Virus record (IMG/VR): IMGVR_UViG_2654587509_000002
Direction: 5' to 3' (one strand)
Source of the DNA: a virus
Lineage: Duplodnaviria; Heunggongvirae; Uroviricota; Caudoviricetes
Length of the DNA stretch: 20,421 nt
Shown: piece by piece, positions 6,084-20,421 of the stretch
Numbering within the stretch: position 1 is the first letter of the stretch
Layout: each line of letters starts with the position of its first letter
Translations under genes and position numbers: made by a program
The notes under the pieces: model-generated
What the model was told of the DNA's origin: nothing
The model's input: only the letters and a program-made list of their open reading frames with translations
Databases searched by the model: none

Positions 6084-7439
<1,356 letters not shown>

Positions 7440-8116: not shown

Positions 8117-8671
8117 TTACTTAGATATTGGCCTTGGCTTTATCTCAATATTATATGGATCATAGCTGGCAACTAATTCAGTCCAGTAAATATCCTCAAT
8201 AGGGAATAATATATGCTTCCCGTTCCATCGGGAAAAAGTTTTGTTCAACACACCAAGCTCAATCAACTCACTAATGTATGGGAATTGTTTTGATGTAACC
8301 ACATACTTCCTGCCTTCATTAAGGGCTGCGCACAAAACCATAGATTGCTCTTCTGTAAGGTTTTGAATTACCGATCGCACTTTATCGTTTTGCATCTTAA
8401 TGCGTTTTCTTAGCTTAAATCGCTTATATTTGGCGCTGGCAATAGCTGATAATCGATGCACATTAATTGCTAGCGAAAATGCAAGAGCAAAGACGAAAAC
8501 ATGCCACACATGAGGAATACCGATTCTCTCATTAACATATTCAGGCCAGTTATCTGGGCTTAAAAGCAGAAGTCCAACCCAGATAACGATCATATACATG
8601 GTTCTCTCCAGAGGTTCATTACTGAACACTCGTCCGAGAATAACGAGTGGATCCATTTCTATACTCATCAA
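8117..8671 (-). CDS. sieB: Superinfection exclusion protein B (SieB)
   Basis: 184 aa MMSIEMDPLVILGRVFSNEPLERTMYMIVIWVGLLLL... with hydrophobic segments; transcribed opposite to N, as in lambda. Confidence 0.8.
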   Translation of the reverse strand: MMSIEMDPLVILGRVFSNEPLERTMYMIVIWVGLLLLSPDNWPEYVNERIGIPHVWHVFVFALAFSLAINVHRLSAIASAKYKRFKLRKRIKMQNDKVRSVIQNLTEEQSMVLCAALNEGRKYVVTSKQFPYISELIELGVLNKTFSRWNGKHILFPIEDIYWTELVASYDPYNIEIKPRPISK

Positions 8672-9045: not shown

Positions 9046-9165
9046 CAGAACAACAAAGCTGCCTGATAGTGGCCTTTATTTTTGGCATAAATAACAGAAT
9101 AAACACTGCACTGAACCGCCCCGGGAATCCTGGAGACTAAACTCCCTGAGAAAGAGGTAAACAGG

Positions 9166-9492
9166 ATGACTAAAAATACTCGTTTTTCCCCTGAAGTCCG
9201 TCAACGGGCAGCCCGTATGGTTCTGGAAAGTCAGGGCGAATATGACTCACAATGGGCGACAATTTGTTCCATTGCTCCAAAGATTGGCTGTACGCCGGAG
9301 ACTCTGCGTGTCTGGGTTCGCCAGCATGAGCGGGATACCGGGGGCGGTGATGGAGGGCTCACCACCGCTGAACGTCAGCGTCTGAAAGAGCTGGAGCGTG
9401 AAAATCGTGAACTGCGCCGCAGTAACGATATCCTTCGCCAGGCTTCCGCTTATTTTGCGAAGGCGGAGTTCGACCGCCTCTGGAAAAAATAA
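9166..9492 (+). CDS. IS629 transposase OrfA (HTH and leucine-zipper subunit)
   Basis: 108 aa [55 protein letters not shown]...; ends in an A6 run just before orfB. Confidence 0.9.
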
Positions 9493-10379
9493 TGCCGCTG
9501 CTGGATAAGCTGCGTGAGCAGTACGGGGTCGGACCGCTATGCAGCGAACTGCATATTGCCCCGTCAACGTATTACCACTGTCAGCAACAGCGACATCATC
9601 CGGATAAACGCAGTGCCCGTGCGCAGCGCGATGACTGGCTGAAGAAAGAGATACAGCGCGTATACGATGAAAATCACAAGGTATACGGTGTGCGTAAAGT
9701 CTGGCGTCAGTTGTTACGGGAAGGAATCAGAGTGGCCAGATGCACTGTGGCACGTCTCATGGCGGTTATGGGACTTGCCGGTGTTCTCCGGGGTAAAAAG
9801 GTCCGCACTACCGTCAGCCGGAAAGCCGTTGCCGCATGCGACCGCGTAAACCGTCAGTTCGTGGCAGAACGTCCAGACCAGTTGTGGGTGGCTGATTTTA
9901 CCTGGGTAAGCACATGGCAGGGCTTCGTTTATGTGGCGTTCATCATTGATGTGTTCGCCGGATACATCGTGGGATGGCAGGTCTCATCATCCATGGAAAC
10001 AACATTCGTGCTGGATGCACTGGAGCAGGCGTTGTGGGCCCGTCGGCCGTCCGGCACAATCCATCACAGTGATAAAGGTTCTCAGTATGTATCGCTGGCC
10101 TACACGCAGCGGCTTAAGGAAGCCGGATTACTGGCATCAACAGGGAGTACTGGCGACTCGTATGACAACGCGATGGCGGAGAGCATCAATGGTCTTTACA
10201 AAGCGGAGGTAATACACCGTAAGAGCTGGAAAAACCGTGCAGAAGTGGAACTGGCCACACTCACGTGGGTGGACTGGTATAACAATCGACGATTGCTGGA
10301 AAGGCTGGGCCATACTCCCCCGGCAGAAGCAGAAAAAGCTTATTATGCTTCCATCGGAAACGATGATCTGGCAGCCTGA
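9492..10379 (+). CDS. IS629 transposase OrfB (DDE catalytic domain), normally expressed as an OrfAB fusion by -1 frameshift
   Basis: 295 aa, in the -1 frame relative to orfA and overlapping its stop; IS3-family integrase-core motifs (HSDKGSQY..., ...ESINGLYKAE). Confidence 0.9.
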   Translation: MPLLDKLREQYGVGPLCSELHIAPSTYYHCQQQRHHPDKRSARAQRDDWLKKEIQRVYDENHKVYGVRKVWRQLLREGIRVARCTVARLMAVMGLAGVLRGKKVRTTVSRKAVAACDRVNRQFVAERPDQLWVADFTWVSTWQGFVYVAFIIDVFAGYIVGWQVSSSMETTFVLDALEQALWARRPSGTIHHSDKGSQYVSLAYTQRLKEAGLLASTGSTGDSYDNAMAESINGLYKAEVIHRKSWKNRAEVELATLTWVDWYNNRRLLERLGHTPPAEAEKAYYASIGNDDLAA

Positions 10380-10421
10380 GTTCACAGATAAAACACTCTC
10401 CAGGAAACCCGGGGCGGTTCA

Positions 10422-10610
10422 CTGCGTGTGTGGGTTCGTCAGCATGAGCGGGATACCGGGAGTGGTGATGGTGGACTCACCACCGCTGAACGTCAGCGTC
10501 TGAAAGAGCTGGAACGTGAAAATCGTGAACTGCGCCGCAGTAACGATATCCTTCGCCAGGCTTCCGCTTATTTTGCGAAGGCGGAGTTCGACCGCCTCTG
10601 GAAAAAATAA
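10422..10610 (+). pseudogene. IS629 orfA remnant (C-terminal 62 codons, no native start)
   Basis: In-frame continuation of orfA codons from the truncation point; the ORF track shows it only via a GTG start at 10428. Confidence 0.8.
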
Positions 10611-11497
10611 TGCCGCTGCTGGATAAGCTGCGTGAGCAGTACGGGGTCGGACCGGTATGCAGTGAACTGCATATTGCCCCGTCAACGTATTACCACTGTC
10701 AGCAACAGCGACATCATCCTGATAAACGCAGTGCCCGTGCTCAGCGCGATGACTGGCTGAAGAGAGAGATACAGCGCGTATACGATGAAAATCATCAGGT
10801 GTACGGTGTGCGTAAAGTCTGGCGCCAGTTGTTACGCGAAGGTATCAGGGTGGCCAGATGTACAGTGGCGCGCCTCATGGCGGTTATGGGACTTGCCGGT
10901 GTTCTCCGGGGTAAAAAGGTCCGTACTACCGTCAGCCGGAAAGCCGTTTCCGCAGGCGACCGCGTAAACCGTCAGTTCGTGGCAGAACGTCCTGACCAGC
11001 TGTGGGTGGCTGATTTTACTTACGTCAGCACATGGCAGGGCTTCGTCTATGTGGCGTTCATCATTGATGTGTTTGCCGGATGTATCGTGGGGTGGCGAGT
11101 CTCATCGTCTATGGAAACGACATTCGTGCTGGATGCACTGGAGCAGGCGTTGTGGGCCCGTCGGCCGTCCGGCACAGTCCATCACAGTGATAAAGGTTCT
11201 CAGTATGTATCACTGGCCTATACGGAGCGACTAAAAGAAGCAAAACTGCTGGCATCAACAGGGAGTACAGGTGACTCGTATGACAACGCGATGGCGGAGA
11301 GCATCAATGGTCTTTACAAAGCGGAGGTAATACACCGTAAGAGCTGGAAAAACCGTGCAGAAGTGGAACTGGCCACACTCACGTGGGTGGACTGGTATAA
11401 CAATCGACGATTGCTGGGAAGGCTGGGTCATATCCCTCCGGCAGAAGCAGAAAAAGCTTATTATGCTTCCATCAGAAACGATGATCTGGCAGCCTGA
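10610..11497 (+). CDS. IS629 OrfB, second copy (intact frame; expression doubtful because orfA is truncated)
   Basis: 295 aa, about 95% identical to the first OrfB with scattered substitutions (for example K52R, W138Y, Y158C). Confidence 0.8.
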   Translation: MPLLDKLREQYGVGPVCSELHIAPSTYYHCQQQRHHPDKRSARAQRDDWLKREIQRVYDENHQVYGVRKVWRQLLREGIRVARCTVARLMAVMGLAGVLRGKKVRTTVSRKAVSAGDRVNRQFVAERPDQLWVADFTYVSTWQGFVYVAFIIDVFAGCIVGWRVSSSMETTFVLDALEQALWARRPSGTVHHSDKGSQYVSLAYTERLKEAKLLASTGSTGDSYDNAMAESINGLYKAEVIHRKSWKNRAEVELATLTWVDWYNNRRLLGRLGHIPPAEAEKAYYASIRNDDLAA

Positions 11498-11539
11498 GTT
11501 CACAGATAAAACACTCTCCAGGAAAACCGGGGCGGTTCA

Positions 11540-11953
11540 GGGCTGTATTCCAATGCCACGTTGACAGATGCTGACCCTCAGGCAATTGAAGATGCCATTA
11601 ATGACCTCGAAGACATGATGGCAGCATGGCAGGCTAAAGGTATCGAGCTTGGATATCAGTTTGCTGATACAGAAAACGGCATCATGCCGTTACCTGACGA
11701 TGATTCAGGTATCCCTGCGTGGGCAAATGATGGCGTCGCTTTGAAGCTCGCTGTGCAAGTGTGCATGGATAACGTCATTCAGCCGTCAGATGCTCTCCTT
11801 ACCGCTGCTGACAGCGCATATCAGACAATCTGCATCGCTTTAACCAAAATACCACCACTTGAGCGGCGAAATGACATGCCTCGCGGTAGTGGTAACAAAA
11901 GCGCGTTTACGTGGAATCGGTTTTACATCGAGAAAGATGATCCAAGTACGTGA
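11540..11953 (+). pseudogene. gp4: P22-like gene 4 (head completion / tail accessory protein), 5'-truncated by IS629
   Basis: Frame is open from the IS boundary (GLYSNATLTDADPQAIEDAINDLEDMMAAW...), 137 codons remaining; no start codon with a ribosome-binding site; followed by gene 10 as in P22. Confidence 0.7.
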
Positions 11954-12103: not shown

Positions 12104-12688
12104 ATGCTTTCTGAGAATGCTAAAGATATACCTGGATTTGAAGGTGTTTATGCCGTAACAGAAGATGGCAGGGTATATTCTCACTCACGTGTTGTTAAGG
12201 CTGCGCATGGCAGCACGCAACTCAGAAAGGGGCGCTGGTTAAAGCCTAAAATCAATCAGGGAAGGGTGCTTTATAATATCGGAGCAAAATGGACTTTTGC
12301 CCATCGAATCGTTGCAATGACATTCCTGCCAAATCCTGAAAACAAGCCTCAGGTAAATCATATTGATGGCAATCCACTCAATAATAACGTCAATAATCTT
12401 GAGTGGTGCACTCAAAGCGAAAACATCAAACATGCATACGCCACCGGATTAAAGAAACCAATCAAGTTTTTCGGAACCAAGCACCCAAAACACAAGTTGA
12501 GTGATGACGATGTTCTTGCAATCAAGTCATCAAAAGAAAGCTTGTCAGTAATTGCGGCTAAGTACGGGATATCTAAGACCTGGGCAAGTAGGCTAAAGCG
12601 TGATGCTAACTGGGTTCATATAAAGGTTGATTCCAATGGCAATACAACAACTACCACTAATGAAGGGATTGGGGAAAAGTGCGGTTAA
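12104..12688 (+). CDS. HNH homing-endonuclease-like protein (NUMOD4-like N-terminus plus HNH motif)
   Basis: 194 aa; AAGGAG ribosome-binding site; GFEGVYAVTEDGRVYS (NUMOD4-like), HRIVAMTF...VNHIDGNPLNNNVNNLEWCTQSENIKHA (HNH); AT-rich; 3' end overlaps the gene 10 start. Confidence 0.8.
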   Translation: MLSENAKDIPGFEGVYAVTEDGRVYSHSRVVKAAHGSTQLRKGRWLKPKINQGRVLYNIGAKWTFAHRIVAMTFLPNPENKPQVNHIDGNPLNNNVNNLEWCTQSENIKHAYATGLKKPIKFFGTKHPKHKLSDDDVLAIKSSKESLSVIAAKYGISKTWASRLKRDANWVHIKVDSNGNTTTTTNEGIGEKCG

Positions 12689-14054
12689 TGCTGATTATAT
12701 AGACCAACTTCCAGTCAATCTTTTAGCTACGCCCAAGGAGGTGTTGAATTCATCGGGATATCTTCGCTCATTCCCGGGCATTGCCAAACGTTCTGATGTG
12801 AACGGCGTATCGCGAGGCGTCGAGTACAACATGGCGCAGAGTGCTGTTTATCGCGTGTGTGGTGGCAAGCTGTACAAAGGAGAAAGTGAAGTTGGTGATG
12901 TTGCCGGAAGTGGTCGCGTATCAATGGCACATGGTCGGACATCACAGGCGGTAGGCGTTAATGGTCAACTGGTCGAATACCGCTATGATGGCACGGTTAA
13001 AACCGTCTCAAACTGGCCTACGGACAGCGGATTCACGCAGTATGAGTTAGGTTCGGTCCGTGACATTACGCGTTTACGTGGGCGTTATGCGTGGTCAAAA
13101 GACGGTACTGATTCATGGTTTATCACTGACCTTGAAGACGAATCGCATCCTGACCGCTACAGCGCACAATATCGGGCAGAATCGCAGCCGGACGGTATCA
13201 TCGGCATCGGAACATGGCGAGATTTCATCGTCTGCTTTGGTTCATCGACGATTGAATATTTTTCCCTGACTGGTGCAACCACCGTTGGTGCCGCTTTGTA
13301 TGTCGCACAGCCATCACTAATGGTGCAAAAAGGAATCGCCGGGACTTACTGCAAAACGCCATTCTCTGATTCATATGCGTTCATCAGCAATCCGGCAACA
13401 GGTGCGCCGTCTGTGTACATCATCGGCTCCGGTCAGGTGTCACCAATCGCCAGTGCGAGCATTGAGAAAATCCTCCGCTCCTACACTGCTGATGAACTGG
13501 CTGATGGCGTGATGGAATCGTTGCGGTTTGATGCTCATGAGTTGCTGATTATCCATCTTCCGCGTCACGTCCTCGTGTACGACGCATCTTCAAGCGCCAA
13601 TGGTCCGCAATGGTGTGTGCTTAAAACAGGCCTGTATGACGATGTGTACCGCGCTATCGACTTCATTTACGAAGGCAATCAGATAACGTGCGGCGATAAG
13701 CTGGAATCGGTGACCGGGAAATTGCAGTTCGATATCAGCAGTCAGTATGGGCTTCAACAGGAACACCTTCTGTTTACTCCGTTGTTCAAAGCGGATAACG
13801 CCAGATGCTTCGATCTGGAGGTGGAATCGTCCACTGGCGTAGCTCAGTACGCCGACCGCCTGTTCCTCTCTGCGACCACTGACGGCATAAATTACGGTCG
13901 TGAGCAGATGATTGAGCAGAATGAACCGTTCGTTTACGACAAACGCGTTTTGTGGAAGCGAGTCGGGCGCATCAGGAAAAATGTCGGCTTCAAATTGCGC
14001 GTTATCACGAAGTCACCTGTCACTCTGTCTGGCTGCCAGATAAGGATTGAGTAA
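12636..14054 (+). CDS. gp10: P22-like gene 10 tail accessory factor
   Basis: 472 aa from ATG 12636, the same length as P22 gp10; position between genes 4 and 26. Confidence 0.8.
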
Positions 14055-14755
14055 TGGCTGATTCGAATCTCAACACCCCTGTTATTGTGCAGGCGACGCG
14101 GCTCGATACATCAATCCTTCCACGCAATATATTCAGCCAGTCTTACCTGCTGTATGTCATTAATCAGGGGGCTGATGTCGGCGCAATTGCCGGGAAGGCA
14201 AATCAGGCTGGTCAGGGCGCTTACGATGCTCAGGTGAAAAACGATGAACAGGACGTCGAACTGGCTGATCACGACGCAAGAATCACCGCAAACACAAAAG
14301 CGATAAATCTACTTGAGGTCAGGTTAACAACTGCCGAAGGGAAGATAGTCGTACTGCGTAGCGATGTTGATTACTTGCTGGATGAGGTTATCGATATTCA
14401 GGCGCATCTGGTCACTGTTGACCAAAGACTGGATGACGTAGAAAACGATGTCTCTGGCATTAAGAGTGATTACGTATCGAAAACCGTAACCGAATTGCAG
14501 TCTCTTGAGTCACCGCTGGATGTAAAAACATCATATTCAGTTGATGGAATTCAGGTTGTTGGAGCAAGAAATACCGGATGGACTGCAGCCACAGGTACGC
14601 CACTTCTTGGCTCATTCAACGCTAACCAGTCATACACTGTCGGCACTACGTACACACAATCCGAAGTCGCAGCTCTCGCTACAGGTTTGCAGCAGGCGCG
14701 GCAGCGTATTCTGGCGCTTGAAACGGCACTTAGATTACATGGGCTGATTGACTGA
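14054..14755 (+). CDS. gp26: P22-like gene 26 tail needle
   Basis: 233 aa [36 protein letters not shown]... with a heptad-rich coiled core and C-terminal ...[14 protein letters not shown], as recalled for P22 gp26. Confidence 0.85.
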
Positions 14756-15210
14756 TGATTACATTCAAACCAACGCGAAACATCGACCTGATAGAAGCAG
14801 TCGGAAATCACCCTGACATTATCGCCGGGAGCAACAACGGCGATGGATACGACTACAAACCTGAATGCCGTTACTTTGAGGTGAGCGTGCACGGGCAGTT
14901 CGGCGGCATTGTTTACTATCAGGAGATTCAGCCGCTGACATTCGATTGCCACGCCATGTACCTGCCAGAGGTTCGTGGATTCAGCAAGGAAATCGGTCTG
15001 GCGTTCTGGCGATACATTCTGACTAACACCACCGTTCAGTGCGTCACATCGTTCGCTGCACGCAAATTCCGCCACGGGCAGATGTACTGCGCAATGATTG
15101 GCCTTAAGCGTGTAGGAACCATCAAGAAATACTTCAAAGGCGTGGATGACGTGACTTTTTACAGTGCTACACGCGAAGAACTAATCGAATTCCTGAATCA
15201 CGGGAGATAG
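14755..15210 (+). CDS. gp14: P22-like gene 14 protein
   Basis: 151 aa; synteny between gene 26 and gene 7; ATGA-type overlap with the gene 26 stop. Confidence 0.7.
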   Translation: MITFKPTRNIDLIEAVGNHPDIIAGSNNGDGYDYKPECRYFEVSVHGQFGGIVYYQEIQPLTFDCHAMYLPEVRGFSKEIGLAFWRYILTNTTVQCVTSFAARKFRHGQMYCAMIGLKRVGTIKKYFKGVDDVTFYSATREELIEFLNHGR

Positions 15211-15212
15211 CC

Positions 15213-15905
15213 ATGTTATATGCATTTAAGCTGGGCAGAAAACTGCGCGGCGAGGAACCTTATTGCCATGAAAAAGGCGGGAAAGGTGGCAGCTCTGATA
15301 AAAGCGCAAAGTATGCAGCAGAAGCTCAGAAGTATGCCGCAGACCTGCAAAATCAGCAGTTCAACACCATCATGAACAACCTGAAACCGTTTACTCCTCT
15401 GGCTGAGAAGTATGTCGGCAGCCTCGAGAACTTATCGTCTCTGGAGGGGCAAGGTCAGGCGCTTAACCAGTATTACAACTCTCAGCAGTATAAAGACCTT
15501 GCAGGTCAGGCTCGCTATCAGAGTCTGGCTGCAGCGGAAGCAACAGGTGGATTGGGTTCCACCGCAACCAGTAATCAGTTAGCAACAATCGCACCAACGC
15601 TTGGTCAGCAATGGCTATCTGGTCAGATGAACAACTACCAGAATCTGGCAAATGTTGGTCTTGGCGCACTGCAAGGTCAGGCAAACGCCGGGCAGACATA
15701 TGCCAACAACATGAGTCAGATTTCTCAGCAAAGTGCGGCTCTTGCAGCGGCAAATGCCAACAGACCATCAGCAATGCAATCTGCTATTGGCGGAGGTGCG
15801 TCTGGTGCTATTGCTGGGGCTGGACTTGCGAAATTAATTGGTTCATCCACTCCGTGGGGGGCTGCGATCGGCGGCGGTCTTGGTCTGCTTGGCTCGTTGT
15901 TTTAA
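15213..15905 (+). CDS. gp7: P22-like gene 7 ejection (internal virion) protein
   Basis: 230 aa MLYAFKLGRKLRGEEPYC...; Q/N/A-rich with a Gly-rich hydrophobic C-terminus; length and order as P22 gp7. Confidence 0.8.
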   Translation: MLYAFKLGRKLRGEEPYCHEKGGKGGSSDKSAKYAAEAQKYAADLQNQQFNTIMNNLKPFTPLAEKYVGSLENLSSLEGQGQALNQYYNSQQYKDLAGQARYQSLAAAEATGGLGSTATSNQLATIAPTLGQQWLSGQMNNYQNLANVGLGALQGQANAGQTYANNMSQISQQSAALAAANANRPSAMQSAIGGGASGAIAGAGLAKLIGSSTPWGAAIGGGLGLLGSLF

Positions 15906-15914
15906 GGGGTAATC

Positions 15915-17330
15915 ATGGCTACGTGGCAACATGGTATTAATTCTGGTGGTTTTCTGGCTGGCATCGGTACGCAAAATGAGAATGCGCCAAAGGCAAGCGA
16001 CATTAACGCAACGCTTGGTCTGATCCGCGAAAACAATGAGTTGGCTCGCTCAGGTGCAAATAACGTTGGTCTGACCGCGTTACGTGGTCTGGCTGGAGTT
16101 GCTGATATTTACAATCAGGAACAGCAACAGAAAGCGATTAGTGCGTTCAATAAGGTTCACGCTGATGCATGGGCTTCTGGTGATCCATCGGGACTATTTA
16201 AGTTTGCCCAGGAAAATCCAGCGTTTGTTGCACAGGCACAACAGGCGTTTTCTGGTCTTAATGATCAGCAACGCAACGATATGGGCGATTTAGCCATGAG
16301 GGCTAACGTCGCTCTTTCTCAGGGACCGGAAGCCTACAGTAAATTCATTACTGACAACAAGGACAGGTTAAATCGCGTTGGTGCTAATGCTGACTGGATG
16401 ATTCAGACAGGTATCCAGAATCCAGAGCAGCTATCACACATGCTGACTACTATGTCTCTCGGTGCGCTTGGACCAGAAAAGGCGTTTGCTGTTCAGGATA
16501 AGATGGCTGGTCGTGAAATTGACCGAGGCAGGCTGGCAGAGACAATCCGCAGCAATCAGGCTGGTGAAGCACTTCAGGCGAGAGGGCAAAACCTTTCCTA
16601 TCAGTCAGCAATGACTGGGCACAATATCGCAGCACAACGCTTGGCTCTGGATCAGCAAGAGTTCGGGTTTAAGATGCAGCAAGCGCAGGAAAAGGCTCAG
16701 CAGTTGATTAGTGAAGCACCTAAGCTGTCAGTAAACATGGAAAAAGGCATCGAGACGGCTGTAAACAATGCCACAGCATCATCAAACTCAGCCAATTCTA
16801 TGAGTGCGCTTGCTCAACAGTTCAGAGCAGAAAAACCAACGACAGGTTTGTTCGGTAACGCACAGAACATGTTCGCAAAACTTACCGGAAGCGATACGAC
16901 ATTGCGTGATTTGCGCATCCGCCAAAATGCCCTTGTTAACAGTCAGGTTCTTAAATTCCTACCTCCCGGCCCAGCAACGGATAAAGACGTTGAGATCGTT
17001 CGGCAGGGTGCGCCAACTGACATGGATAACCCTGAGACGGTCGCAAGATGGCTTGATGCAATGGCAAACCTTGAGCGACGAAACGCGCAGTTTAATGAGT
17101 TTAAAGCTGAGTGGATGAGCGCGAATGGCAATCCTGGACAATCGCGTAATGGCGGTCAGATATTGGGGTTGGATGTTAAAAAAGGTGAATCATTGGGGAG
17201 TGCCGTTAAGCGGTATATGTCATTGAATACTGACGCAGCGCCAGCACAAGATTCGACACCTTCAGGAGAACCACGGAATCAGGTTGGATCATATACCTCA
17301 AAATCAGTCATTCAATTTACGGTGGAATGA
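15915..17330 (+). CDS. gp20: P22-like gene 20 ejection protein
   Basis: 471 aa, identical in length to P22 gp20; synteny. Confidence 0.8.
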
Positions 17331-19168
17331 TGAAAGTAACTGCAAACGGTAAGACATTTACCTTCCCTGATGGTACGAGCACGGAAGATATTGGAGCCGC
17401 CATTGATGATTATTTTGCTGGTCAGGTTGTTCAGCAACAAACAGTTAATCAGGCCAATAATGCACCAGTACGTGAAGAACCATCATTGATGCAACAAGCT
17501 GGCGATTGGCTCACTGGTGGTCAAAGTGCAGGGCAAATTGCAGAACAGGCTGGTCGTGGTCTGGTAAACATACCATTTGACGTATTGCAGGGTGGCGCAA
17601 GTCTGATTAATGCAATCAGTCAGGGGCTTGGTGGGCCAAAAGTTTTGGATGATGTTTATCGTCCAGTAGACAAACCGACAGACCCATACGCACAAGCCGG
17701 TGAAACAATTGGTGGGTATTTAGTTCCAGGAGTTGGAACGGCAGGAAGCATGGCTATTGGATCGCTGGCAGAGGCCGCAAATCAGAAAGGCGATTTCGCA
17801 CAAAATGCAGCTAAAAATGCCGGAGTTAACCTTGCCGCTCAGGGTGTTCTTTCCGCAGCAGCAAAGGGAATAGGGCGTGGAATAACGGCTATAAAAGGTG
17901 ATATTGCGCCAGAAGTGGCGAAGAAAATTGCCACATCAGAATCGATGGGCGTGACACCAATGACATCTGATGTTATCCCGCCGAAAAATGCTTTCACTCG
18001 CGGCCTTACTCAGGATGCCGAGGGGGCTTTGCTCGGGACGGGCTCAAAGCGAGCAGAGCAATATGCAACGCGGAGTAAGCTGGTAAGCAATTATTTTGAC
18101 CGTTTTGGTGAGTACAACCCTGATGATGTGGTGAAATCTCTGACCACCACGTTAAGGGGGCGGAAGGATGCCGCTGGCGCTGTTATCAATGACGTCACCA
18201 ATAAAATGGGTAATGCCGCAGTTGATACCACAAATACCATGAATGCTCTGAATACAGCGATCGCAAGACAGGAACGGCTTGGGACGTCTGCCAATCAAAG
18301 CCTGCTTACATCCTTGCGTAACCTACGTGAAGAATTAGCAAACCCTGCAACTGATTTGGATGTTACGTTTGATCTCTTGCGTCAGCACAGAACAGCATTT
18401 AGATCTAATGTTCAGGGAGATGCTATGGTCTTCCCCAACCAGGCAAAAGCAGCTACCAATATGGTAGAGAATGCAATGTCAAAAGACCTTCGTAACGCAG
18501 TTGCTAAAAACCTCGGTGCATCAGACGCAGCAAAATACCTTAAAGCAAATTCCGATTATGCAAACGTTTATAATAAGGTGCTTAATAAAAACATTGCCAA
18601 CAAGCTCAACAAGGCAAGCAGTGAAGCCAGTCCTGAACTTATAAATACCGTTGTATTAAGCAGAAAACCATCTGACGTGAAACGAATCTGGAGCGCACTG
18701 GATGATAAGGGGAAAGATGCTATGCGTGCAGCTTACGTCAGCAAAATAGCGGAAAAGGCCGGGGACTCTCCAGCCAAGTTCATCACTGAAGTTAATAAGC
18801 TGAAATCTCAGTCAGGCGGTGAAATTTACAACACTATTTTTTCTGGAAAGCACATGAAAGAGCTTGATGCTCTTCATGAAGTTCTACAGCAAACAGCAAG
18901 GTCAGACACCGCAAATGTAGTAACTCAGACGGGGCAATCGCAAGCCAACAGGATAAGGACGATTGGCGCAACTGCGACCCTTGGCGTATCAATGGGGCTT
19001 GAGGCTGGTTTTGGTGCAATGATGCGCTTGTATGAGTCCAAAGCAGCAAGGAATATGCTTCTTCGTTTGGCAAACACCAAAGCAGGAACACCAGCCTATG
19101 AAAGAGCGATAAATAACGCTGCGAATGCCATCAGACCGCTGTTTGCTACTGAGGCAACACAGCAGTAA
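17327..19168 (+). CDS. gp16: P22-like gene 16 ejection protein
   Basis: 613 aa (P22 gp16 is about 609 aa); ATGA overlap with gene 20; last gene of the ejection operon. Confidence 0.8.
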
Positions 19169-19192
19169 CGTATGGGAAATTGGATTCAATCG

Positions 19193-19582
19193 CTAACATT
19201 TTCTTTTTACTTTTCCAACAAAAGCTTTGGTTGAATCCATATTTCCATAACCGGAAATGGTTTTTGACATTAAAACTGTTCCAGTAGGATGTATTACCCA
19301 TGAGTCGATAACGCGTTGAGTTTCGCCATTCGCGCCGATTCCTATGATGGAGTTTTTAGACAATGCTTTGTAAGCCATGCCGCCCGCATCTGTCCCAGAA
19401 TATGTGATGCTGGCATCTTCACCGTTTGTCTTAATGATGAATGTTCCACTAAAACCATCTTCTTCCGGATGGAAATTATTTCGTTCTGAATAGCTTATTC
19501 CGCGCATATCTCCAACGACCCAGCACTCTGCTGTAGCCCCAAAAGATATGAATAAGAACATAGCAGTAAGAAATTGCTTCAC
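19193..19582 (-). CDS. Secreted (periplasmic) protein of unknown function, 129 aa, paralog of the cI-linked gene at 7035
   Basis: GTG start preceded by a strong ribosome-binding site (TAAGGAGGttggcGTG); signal peptide MKQFLTAMFLFISFGATA then ECW; shared motifs with 7035-7439 (ECW[IV]V, TNGED/INGD, Y.ALS, [ST]W.I, STK[AS]FVG.V, C-terminal Cys). Confidence 0.7.
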   Translation of the reverse strand: MKQFLTAMFLFISFGATAECWVVGDMRGISYSERNNFHPEEDGFSGTFIIKTNGEDASITYSGTDAGGMAYKALSKNSIIGIGANGETQRVIDSWVIHPTGTVLMSKTISGYGNMDSTKAFVGKVKRKC

Positions 19583-19699
19583 GCCAACCTCCTTAGTTTT
19601 GAGCAGGATACCATGAAAAAAGTAAACATCTTTTGCCTACTTCACATTTGAATGGTTTGTCATTAGGATGTTTCCGGTTTTTTAAATATGGAAATTGAT

Positions 19700-20119
19700 A
19701 TGAAGAGGATTATTGGCGTCGTTGCTGGCGCTATATTGTTATCTGGGTGCGCAACTATTGTTGGTGACGAAACGCAGCTTGTGCAAGTGAACAGCAATCC
19801 TTCCGGTGCGAGCTTTAAGGTAAAAGACGAATCAGGCGTGATTGTTGCGCAAGGTAAGACCCCGCAAGGAGTAACTCTTGCCAAGTCAGATGGTAGTTAT
19901 TTTGGCAAAAAGAGCTACCAGATCACTATGGAGAAGGATGGGTACGAACCAGTTACCCTACCAATCAAAGCCAATGCTAATGGTTGGTATATTGGTGGAA
20001 ATCTTGTGTTTGGTGGGTTAATTGGTTGGCTTGCTGTAGATCCATTTAATGGTGGGATGTATACCTTGAAGCCTAAAGAGGCAAATGCATCCCTTATACC
20101 GTCAACAAAGCAAGACTAA
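19700..20119 (+). CDS. Predicted lipoprotein with a PEGA-like beta domain and a C-terminal glycine-zipper hydrophobic segment
   Basis: MKRIIGVVAGAILLSGC lipobox (Cys +1, Ala +2); NPSGASFKV...GKTPQGVTL...GYEPVTL resembles a PEGA domain; WYIGGNLVFGGLIGWLAV glycine zipper; the ORF-track start at 19688 is also possible. Confidence 0.7.
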   Translation: MKRIIGVVAGAILLSGCATIVGDETQLVQVNSNPSGASFKVKDESGVIVAQGKTPQGVTLAKSDGSYFGKKSYQITMEKDGYEPVTLPIKANANGWYIGGNLVFGGLIGWLAVDPFNGGMYTLKPKEANASLIPSTKQD

Positions 20120-20126
20120 TAAATGG

Positions 20127-20150
20127 AACCCACCATCAGGTGGGTTTTTT
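20127..20150. terminator. Rho-independent terminator between the convergent lipoprotein gene and mnt
   Basis: ACCCACC-atca-GGTGGGT hairpin followed by TTTTTT (20144-20150); the mnt stop codon lies in the loop. Confidence 0.7.
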
Positions 20151-20387
20151 GTACAAATCCTTCAGCGTATCAAACACCATCTTCTTAACAAGTTCGGACT
20201 GCTCATCAGCGATGCGTTCCGCATCGTCTCGATAGCCTGAAATTTTGGATTGCCTTGATACAGCATCAGTCACTATCTGAACTAATTCTGAATTAATAGA
20301 GCGGCCATTGGATTTGGCTCGCTGTTTTAGTTTTTCCTTTAATTTGTAAGGTAGCCGCAGATTAAATTGCGGGTCATCTCTTCCCAT
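20136..20387 (-). CDS. mnt: Mnt repressor (ribbon-helix-helix, Arc/MetJ fold) of a P22-type immI region
   Basis: 83 aa MGRDDPQFNLRLPYKLKEKLKQRAKSNGRSINSELVQIV...DAERIADEQSELVKKMVFDTLKDLYKK, close to P22 Mnt as recalled; transcribed opposite to gene 16, as in P22. Confidence 0.85.
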   Translation of the reverse strand: MGRDDPQFNLRLPYKLKEKLKQRAKSNGRSINSELVQIVTDAVSRQSKISGYRDDAERIADEQSELVKKMVFDTLKDLYKKPT

Positions 20388-20421
20388 TCTTGATGCCTCG
20401 CTTTTGTGAGTGGATCGGCAT

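Follow-up and report, generated by a model that had tools for sequence, protein, structure and literature searches.

Morons that encode envelope proteins are a main route by which prophages change the surface of their host and its susceptibility to phages, and to our knowledge few such families have been characterized, namely SieA, HK97 gp15, Llp, Cor, Rtp45, Bor and Lom. HK97 gp15 is an inner-membrane protein and, likewise established by experiment as an exclusion protein, is called a superinfection exclusion protein in the title of a 2012 paper by Cumby et al. that is cited in PMC10883804. In phage P22 the interval between gene 16 and mnt holds sieA, whose product, also an exclusion protein by experiment, is expressed from the prophage, blocks DNA injection and targets the ejection proteins gp16 and gp20 (PMC10883804). 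The lipoproteins Llp and Rtp45 bind the periplasmic side of the receptor, FhuA and LptDE, respectively, and jam it from the inside (PMC9586334; PMC12685063). Here we analyze a lipoprotein gene that a P22-like (Lederbergvirus-type) Escherichia coli prophage, contained in the IMG/VR record IMGVR_UViG_2654587509_000002, carries in the interval from gene 16 to mnt; the whole stretch of 20,421 nt that was analyzed is referred to as the window in the following. The gene (19700-20119, + strand) encodes a precursor of 139 amino acids (aa) and a mature protein of approximately 122 aa that matches PHROG 6823 (E=7e-86). In our judgment the chances are evenly balanced that this product is a prophage-expressed lipoprotein of the outer membrane, a conversion factor acting from the periplasm on a conserved component of the host envelope.

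Domain structure and predicted location of the lipoprotein

The product begins with MKRIIGVVAGAILLSGC-ATIVGD and possesses a lipoprotein signal peptide with a basic n-region and a hydrophobic h-region (MKR-IIGVVAGAILL-SGC). Its lipobox LSGC (residues 14-17) conforms to the pattern [LVI][ASTVI][GAS]C and is followed by Ala18 at position +2, and Cys17 is invariant in all 64 diverse homologs. An outer-membrane-type sorting residue behind this lipobox had already been noticed in the first-pass annotation of this DNA. In Enterobacterales the residue at +2 governs sorting by the Lol system, and Ala at this position is no Lol-avoidance signal. The conserved CATIVGD N-terminus leads into a PEGA-like sandwich (approximately residues 25-93), which is followed by an Asn/Gly-rich hydrophobic helix (95-112), a D114-P115...G118-x-M120 turn and a β-hairpin (121-131). 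In an AlphaFold2 model built on the alignment of the 64 diverse sequences (mean pLDDT 87.5), residues 25-93 form a seven-strand sandwich with pLDDT values of 90-98, and the hairpin is predicted with a pLDDT of approximately 96. The modeled fold corresponds to the transthyretin-like β-sandwich of PEGA domains, and the motifs NPSGASF (33-39), GKTPQGV (52-58) and GYEP (81-84), on which the first suggestion of a PEGA-like domain was based, all lie inside the match to the Pfam PEGA family (PF08308). This match spans residues 28-93 (E=0.004). PF08308 was also matched by 36 of the 64 homologs at E<=0.1 (best 5e-9), whereas the window protein itself, with 17.6 bits, stays below the gathering score of 20.8 bits.

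Conservation within the family is highest in the C-terminal element and not in the PEGA domain. The hydrophobic segment of this element, GWYIGGNLVFGGLIGWLA (95-112), carries one GxxxG motif (G105-G109) with the invariant N101 at i-4, and W96, Y97, G100, N101, G105, G106, G109, D114, P115, G118 and M120 show no or almost no variation among sequences with an overall identity of only about 40%; no Pfam model covers this motif. On the helix, residues 96/97, 100/101, 104/105 and 108/109 make one conserved stripe, and such an NxxxGxxxG face with a buried Asn would be of a type known to promote the packing of helices within membranes. A C-terminal glycine zipper had been proposed for this segment. 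A Gly-rich hydrophobic helix with a GxxxG motif is indeed present, but the Pfam glycine-zipper families (PF05433, PF13488, PF13441 and PF13436) matched neither the window protein at E<=1 nor its 64 relatives at E<=0.1, and therefore the term is a description and not a family assignment. Neither the protein nor the family profile gave more than chance-level matches when searched against PDB sequences, and no solved structure was matched specifically. The label 'YceK' that some homologs carry in JGI annotations appears to be an artefact arising from the lipobox region, since no Pfam match to YceK/DUF1375 was found.

The helix is also the feature on which an inner-membrane location of the protein would depend. 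If residues 95-112 formed a true transmembrane anchor, the protein might block the DNA conduit like SieA or HK97 gp15, and this explanation draws on the 18-residue length and the flanking Trp of the hydrophobic helix as well as on the inner-membrane exclusion proteins that occupy the same slots in other phages (PMC10883804). However, the summed insertion energy of residues 95-113 on the Hessa scale is +4.1 kcal/mol, compared to 0.09 for the signal peptide, and because of this weak hydrophobicity the helix should cross Sec rather than act as a stop-transfer anchor. The lack of a Lol-avoidance signal speaks against this location as well, and the hairpin, which in our reading belongs to the periplasmic domain, would end up across the membrane if the helix spanned it. 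In addition, a 365-aa metagenomic relative (P0140) is fused at its C-terminus to an OmpA-type barrel (PF01389, E=2e-15), which supports a predicted location at the outer membrane. An inner-membrane protein is thus very improbable. Since a confidently modeled hairpin follows the helix, the conserved ATIVGD behind the Cys enters the fold without a flexible tether and P0140 carries an OmpA-type barrel, we infer that the helix is a membrane-surface or re-entrant element and not a membrane-spanning one.

Organization of the gene and its putative transcription signals

The reading frame of the lipoprotein is listed as 19688-20119 (+). Since PHROG 6823 aligns from residue 5 of this longer open reading frame (ORF) and all homologs begin with MKK or MKR at that point, the functional start is almost certainly the ATG at 19700 (MKRIIG...). 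On the left the 'ant moron' region begins at the gene for the P22 gp16-type DNA ejection/transfer protein (17327-19168, +; PHROG 770, E=3.5e-278), and on the right the lipoprotein moron is bounded by mnt, which encodes an Arc/Mnt repressor (20136-20387, -; Pfam Arc, E=3e-20; Repressor_Mnt, E=1.4e-18). Homologs of the needle, gp14, gp7, gp20 and gp16 genes run from 14054 to 19168 and are followed by two small genes and then by mnt. The interval between gene 16 and mnt is occupied by the lipoprotein gene and contains no sieA-like ORF, in agreement with the earlier proposal that sieA is replaced at this locus. The lipoprotein gene has a GC content of 44.8%, compared to 48% in the window.

Upstream of the gene lies the divergent intergenic region of 117 bp (19583-19699), which is A+T-rich as first described (65.8% A+T versus 52% in the window), includes the strong Shine-Dalgarno sequence (SD; AAGGAGG) of the leftward secreted-protein gene and is nearly identical to the region upstream of gene 15 in phage epsilon34. 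A scan of positions 19100-20421 yielded a single promoter match, the sigma70-like site TTCACA-17 nt-TAGGAT on the + strand (19641-19669), about 30 nt 5' of the lipoprotein start. This promoter-like site is kept in position in epsilon34 and in the lambdoid prophages L014 and L016, in which the TAGGATGTTTCCGnTTTTTTAAA block recurs 5' of homologs located between genes I and J and TTGAAC is found 17 nt upstream of TAGGAT. The promoter of its own that belongs to the architecture of a moron would be provided by this putative site.

Downstream of the gene a G+C-rich, bidirectional hairpin resembling an intrinsic terminator (20126-20152) was recognized by folding and z-scores. The hairpin at approximately 20126-20147 folds on both strands, with -15.4 kcal/mol (z -2.9) on the + strand, where UUUUUUGU follows, and with -14.0 kcal/mol (z -2.7) on the - strand, where a weaker CCAUUUAUUA follows; on the + strand it consists of GAACCCACC-AUCA-GGUGGGUUU plus the U-run. 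Because the stop codon of mnt (20136-20138) lies within the stem, the hairpin is truly common to the lipoprotein gene and the convergent mnt gene, as the term shared terminator in the first-pass annotation had implied, and the equivalent hairpin in the GenBank record of epsilon34 is annotated as a rho-independent terminator. Comparison with the alleles of epsilon34 and vB_EcoP-720R6 gave dN/dS ratios of 0.034 and 0.041, respectively, and values of 0.03-0.04 mark a gene that is real, constrained and under strong purifying selection.

Carriage of the gene by unrelated phages

The protein is 98-100% identical to gp15 of the Salmonella phage epsilon34 (98%; ACF16641; PHROG 6823) and to the proteins of the Escherichia phages Gally and vB_EcoP-720R6, and these three phages were the only ones to match in a tblastn search of 50,697 phage records. 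Among 5,426 complete E. coli genomes the allele was found in 124 (about 2%), and there is no core copy of the gene in this species; the best full-length matches to positions 19100-20421 are E. coli chromosomes with 98.9% identity. The gene has thus already been catalogued as epsilon34 gp15 and PHROG 6823. It is a conserved gene of the P22 group, one part of a possibility that the first-pass annotation had named as refuting its interpretation, but the other part, a known function, does not apply, as epsilon34 gene 15 was recorded in 2008 as a gene of unknown function, and the lipobox, the PEGA fold and the C-terminal motif are not described there (PMC2629481).

Homologs with 67-78% identity to the window protein and the phage copies described above occupy at least three phage slots, which are the interval between gene 16 and mnt in P22-like phages (the window and epsilon34), the interval that separates the tail chaperone genes G/T from the tape-measure gene in siphophage prophages of E. 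coli (ED1a-type) and Proteus, and the interval between gpI and gpJ in prophages of Pseudescherichia and related bacteria. The first of these belongs to the variable region from gene 16 to the tailspike gene, the 'ant moron' of Casjens and colleagues (PMC2629481), and the gene is absent from P22, ST160, Emek and other phages that share gene 16 and/or mnt. Presence or absence between conserved flanks is the behavior of a moron in the sense of Hendrix and Juhala. Moreover, every homologous copy that was examined in other phage contexts is preceded by an A+T-rich region and followed by its own hairpin and T-run, and a promoter-like site was noted ahead of the gene in each of the contexts. The HK97 record has annotated morons at the same two siphophage positions, with gp15 separating G/T from the tape-measure gene and gp22/gp23 separating I from J. 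In addition, a moron located between tail genes M and L of the ED1a-type prophages (approximately 10261-11424 in L004, L006, L007 and L008) encodes a full-length porin (Porin_1/Porin_4, 357-387 aa), and with the lipoprotein homolog upstream of the tape-measure gene these prophages contain two outer-membrane morons in one tail operon.

Two of these slots hold proven exclusion genes in model phages, sieA in P22 and gp15 in HK97, and by analogy their occupancy is suggestive of a role in exclusion. The most direct form of such a role would be a dedicated exclusion lipoprotein of the Llp/Cor/Rtp45 type, which blocks one receptor (e.g. OmpA, OmpC, FhuA or LptD) against the carrier and its relatives. 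The slots themselves, the position of one group of homologs directly upstream of the gpJ tail-tip gene, a β-sandwich in the predicted outer-membrane lipoprotein that is suited to protein-protein docking, and the structural precedents of Llp and Rtp45 (PMC9586334; PMC12685063) are all consistent with this explanation. However, the carriers differ in their receptors and delivery machines, and the match to the Cor profile (PHROG 1119) is not full-length but limited to the signal peptide, with residues 5-24 aligned to profile positions 1-20 of 78 (E=0.0036). Furthermore, the conservation of the protein, with a dN/dS of 0.03 and 55% identity to Halomonas-type chromosomal proteins, is too high for an arms race, and most of the family resides outside phages, as described below. 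We regard the blocking of a single receptor as rather improbable.

A family of mainly chromosomal lipoproteins

A word-indexed search returned 728 relatives of the window protein, and an exhaustive search of 1.84 billion cluster representatives with phmmer returned 3,682 at E<=1e-3, of which 1,332 reached E<=1e-10; their source names read only 'hypothetical', 'lipoprotein' or 'PEGA domain-containing'. In a sample of 80 species-representative genomes or loci, only 6 loci are situated in lambdoid tail clusters, and neither P22-like nor lambdoid genes were found within 5 kb of the other 74. No conserved operon partner of the chromosomal homologs emerged from a Pfam scan of 204 neighboring ORFs, which comprised ordinary housekeeping genes. 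Synteny was found at the genus level only, with MurJ, a lipid A acyltransferase and EAL proteins in Photorhabdus or Lonsdalea-type loci, and one further long-form locus adjoins pepN. From the predominance of non-phage loci and the lack of a conserved partner it follows that the family is cellular in origin and that its short form was captured by phages of Enterobacterales. The gene is not peculiar to P22-like phages but belongs to a host-derived family whose members are mostly chromosomal.

Two main forms of the protein can be distinguished. A long form, typically with about 150-152 mature residues and a tail of the type SIVLLxDVPxxLRxxM that is conserved, occurs outside Enterobacterales, for example in Halomonas, Chromohalobacter, Marinobacter, Shewanella, Nitrosomonas, Gallionellaceae and Mariprofundus. 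A short form of about 120 mature residues, which like the phage protein ends soon after the hairpin, is found in most Enterobacterales, while other tails consist of DPNK repeats in Photorhabdus (L033-L044) or are Lys-rich in most members from Pasteurellaceae (L049, L051 and L070). All phage copies are of the short form and lack the tail of most chromosomal members, but this lack is not unique to them because Erwiniaceae, Rosenbergiella, Tatumella and Lonsdalea also have the short form at chromosomal loci that seem unrelated to phages.

This distribution is one argument for a host-fitness factor similar to Bor or Lom of phage lambda, which would have no anti-phage role and would provide E. coli and Salmonella with a lipoprotein of the envelope for which other Proteobacteria have a chromosomal gene. 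The benefit would then lie in outer-membrane stability, resistance to stress or serum, or colonization. In line with this explanation, the family is overwhelmingly chromosomal and stand-alone, its conservation is extreme and includes an invariant motif, the gene is missing from the E. coli core genome, and in the window it has been kept intact in a seemingly rearranged and defective prophage. On the other hand, the phage copies are confined to moron slots among tail or ejection genes, which are typical of exclusion genes, and being all of the short form, they may differ in their action from the cellular version. A pure fitness factor is on balance unlikely in our estimation.

The divergent neighbor

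The gene that diverges from the lipoprotein gene across the 117-bp region (19193-19582, - strand) encodes a secreted protein of 129 aa that belongs to PHROG 2651, with a signal peptide ending in ...GATA-ECW, the conserved residues Cys20 and Cys129 and a strong SD. The first-pass annotation called it a secreted paralog, and a paralog indeed exists within the window, a second secreted protein of PHROG 2651 encoded at 7035-7439 on the + strand (27% identity, E=4e-12). A paralogous relationship between the lipoprotein and its divergent neighbor was ruled out (BLASTP E=4.1; hhalign probability 1.9%). The gene at 7035-7439 begins within the last codons of the cI-like repressor gene at 6406-7038, with start and stop overlapping in ATGA, for which reason this paralog should be expressed in lysogens. 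At the corresponding position beside its repressor gene lambda keeps rexAB. The arrangement gives a strong hint that the PHROG 2651 family is expressed in lysogens. PHROG 2651 consists of no more than about 22 clusters, and it is unusual for a single prophage to carry two copies in lysogeny-type slots.

The first-pass annotation had further combined the lipoprotein and its neighbor into a two-gene envelope module, an assumption that was not supported by comparison. The leftward neighbor is the secreted 129-aa protein in the window and in E. coli O111, but a protein of 107-109 aa with a transmembrane segment and a coiled coil in epsilon34 (gp14) and E. coli NCTC11121, and in vB_EcoP-720R6 (L002, 2391-2876, -) it is an unrelated Gln-rich lipoprotein of 161 aa (MKKSLLIIPLLLAGC...) unlike either window gene. 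Conversely, in phage Emek the secreted gene is present and the lipoprotein gene is missing, and the exact gene pair of the window was present in about 40 of the 124 lipoprotein-positive E. coli genomes. The intergenic region including the leftward SD is common to the window (19583-19600) and epsilon34 (L001, 3004-3121), although the leftward genes are unrelated, and since the homology breaks exactly at the leftward start codon, an exchange of cassettes at this point is suggested. The secreted gene is thus an independent moron and not half of an obligate pair, and the locus is a hot-spot at which envelope-targeted morons are swapped.

Proposed mode of action

For a conversion factor in the outer membrane the following course of events can be envisaged. 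A self-contained moron with its own promoter, one gene and its own terminator would have been taken from a widespread family of chromosomal lipoproteins, and its product would be exported by Sec, lipidated at Cys17 and, given Ala at +2, handed by Lol to the outer membrane, where it would reside in the inner leaflet. As the conserved CATIVGD runs into the fold with almost no tether, the PEGA sandwich would be held flat against the periplasmic face of this membrane. The helix W96-Y97-x2-G100-N101-x3-G105-G106-x2-G109 may then dip into the inner leaflet or lie on it, while its Asn/GxxxG face might pack against itself or against a conserved outer-membrane component of the host. Expression from the prophage would alter a property of the host envelope, i.e. 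cause lysogenic conversion, and the most likely selectable outcome would be a reduced entry of incoming phage DNA or of other envelope-crossing agents. Like Llp and Rtp45, the protein would exert its effect from the periplasm, but on a conserved host target and not on the injection machinery of the carrier. Such a target is favored because the carriers include podophages with ejection proteins as well as siphophages with a tape measure, and because the protein is far more conserved than proteins engaged in an arms race. An exclusion function is plausible by analogy with the genes found in the same slots, and the selected phenotype may be either exclusion or host fitness.

Several observations weigh against this proposal. 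The helix at residues 95-112, on which the membrane association would depend, was modeled with moderate confidence (pLDDT approximately 68-81), and an earlier AlphaFold2 run with 30 close homologs left residues 96-115 at a pLDDT below 50 without a helix. The promoter-like site agrees with the consensus in only 9 of 12 positions, and the scan gave fewer matches than shuffled sequence. The extreme conservation of the protein between phages and with distant chromosomal homologs fits a housekeeping-type role in the envelope better than an arms race, while the known exclusion lipoproteins are much smaller, are encoded beside the receptor-binding gene and diversify fast. Self-exclusion via the apparatus of the carrier itself is unlikely given the unrelated DNA-delivery machines among the carriers. 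Moreover, the defense profiles of PADLOC-DB v2 did not match the lipoprotein or its secreted neighbor at E<=1, and searches with 'PEGA lipoprotein' and accessions retrieved no functional literature on this lipoprotein family. Roles in lysis, as a spanin or in virion structure were dropped from consideration, as the gene is not part of a lysis cassette, lacks an i-spanin partner and most relatives are chromosomal and non-phage.

A bolder interpretation, which we consider doubtful, is that the lipoprotein represents a new class, in which a housekeeping lipoprotein of the host that occurs in thousands of Proteobacteria has been captured repeatedly by unrelated temperate phages and gives lysogens a protection that is independent of the receptor. 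The PEGA sandwich together with the WYxxGNxxxGGxxG...DPxxGxM element would in this case alter the inner leaflet or a universal outer-membrane machine such that incoming virions cannot finish the penetration of the envelope. If this were true, working out what the phage copy does would at the same time disclose the function of the chromosomal family as a whole. More generally, a function assigned to the cloned gene would serve both a recurrent prophage gene and a large 'conserved hypothetical' family, whereas without any phenotype the gene would be an ordinary accessory lipoprotein gene.

Prophage setting

The prophage looks rearranged and is probably defective, and terminase, portal and coat genes were not found within the window. 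Early-right genes (cII, O, P and nin) are located on the minus strand and late genes on the plus strand. An IS3-family element (9102-11549) has inverted ends of 35 nt (9102-9136 and 11515-11549) and, through a tandem duplication of 1118 bp in its interior, two transposase ORFs of 295 aa. It joins the PL-side early region (N-like gene and sieB, 8117-8671) directly to a 5'-truncated gene-4-type adaptor gene (11561-11953). Between this adaptor gene and a gp10-like head-closure gene, whose start it overlaps, lies an ORF for an HNH endonuclease (12104-12688, +; PHROG 59, E=4e-53), which could have entered the late operon as a homing endonuclease.

Comparison with known systems

The genes of epsilon34 (gene 15), Gally and vB_EcoP-720R6 are the same gene at the same position between gene 16 and mnt, with the same upstream region and terminator, and show no material difference from the gene of the window. 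SieA of P22 shares the locus within the 'ant moron', but no homology between the two proteins was detected, and the lipoprotein is also found in siphophages, which lack gp16 and gp20. In addition, when both genes between gene 16 and mnt were scanned against PHROG, the only families matched were PHROG 6823 and PHROG 2651, and the architecture of the lipoprotein is unlike that of SieA (PMC10883804). Similarly, homologs of the lipoprotein sit in exactly the slot of HK97 gp15 and have their own terminator, as gp15 does, but gp15, with 62 aa in the annotated record, bears no sequence relation to them. T5 Llp, Rtp Rtp45 and the Cor proteins of phi80 and N15 are phage lipoproteins of the outer membrane that face the periplasm, which corresponds to the location predicted for the window protein. 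However, these proteins of approximately 6-8 kDa are receptor-specific and encoded beside the receptor-binding gene, whereas the window protein of approximately 13 kDa consists of a PEGA sandwich and a hydrophobic helix, is derived from the host and is highly conserved. The PEGA family PF08308 (transthyretin-like/CarboxypepD_reg clan) describes only residues 28-93, approximately, and carries no functional information. With the SlyB/Pcp-type glycine-zipper lipoproteins (PF05433 and relatives) the window protein would have in common the general idea of a lipid anchor combined with a Gly-rich membrane-active helix and a periplasmic β domain. The order of the domains is reversed, however, and the motif of the window protein is NxxxGxxxG with an invariant Asn instead of the canonical GxxxGxxxG. 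The lipoprotein is host-derived and unrelated to SieA, HK97 gp15, Llp, Cor, Rtp45, Bor and Lom, and it has a previously undescribed, conserved motif that is predicted to be membrane-active.

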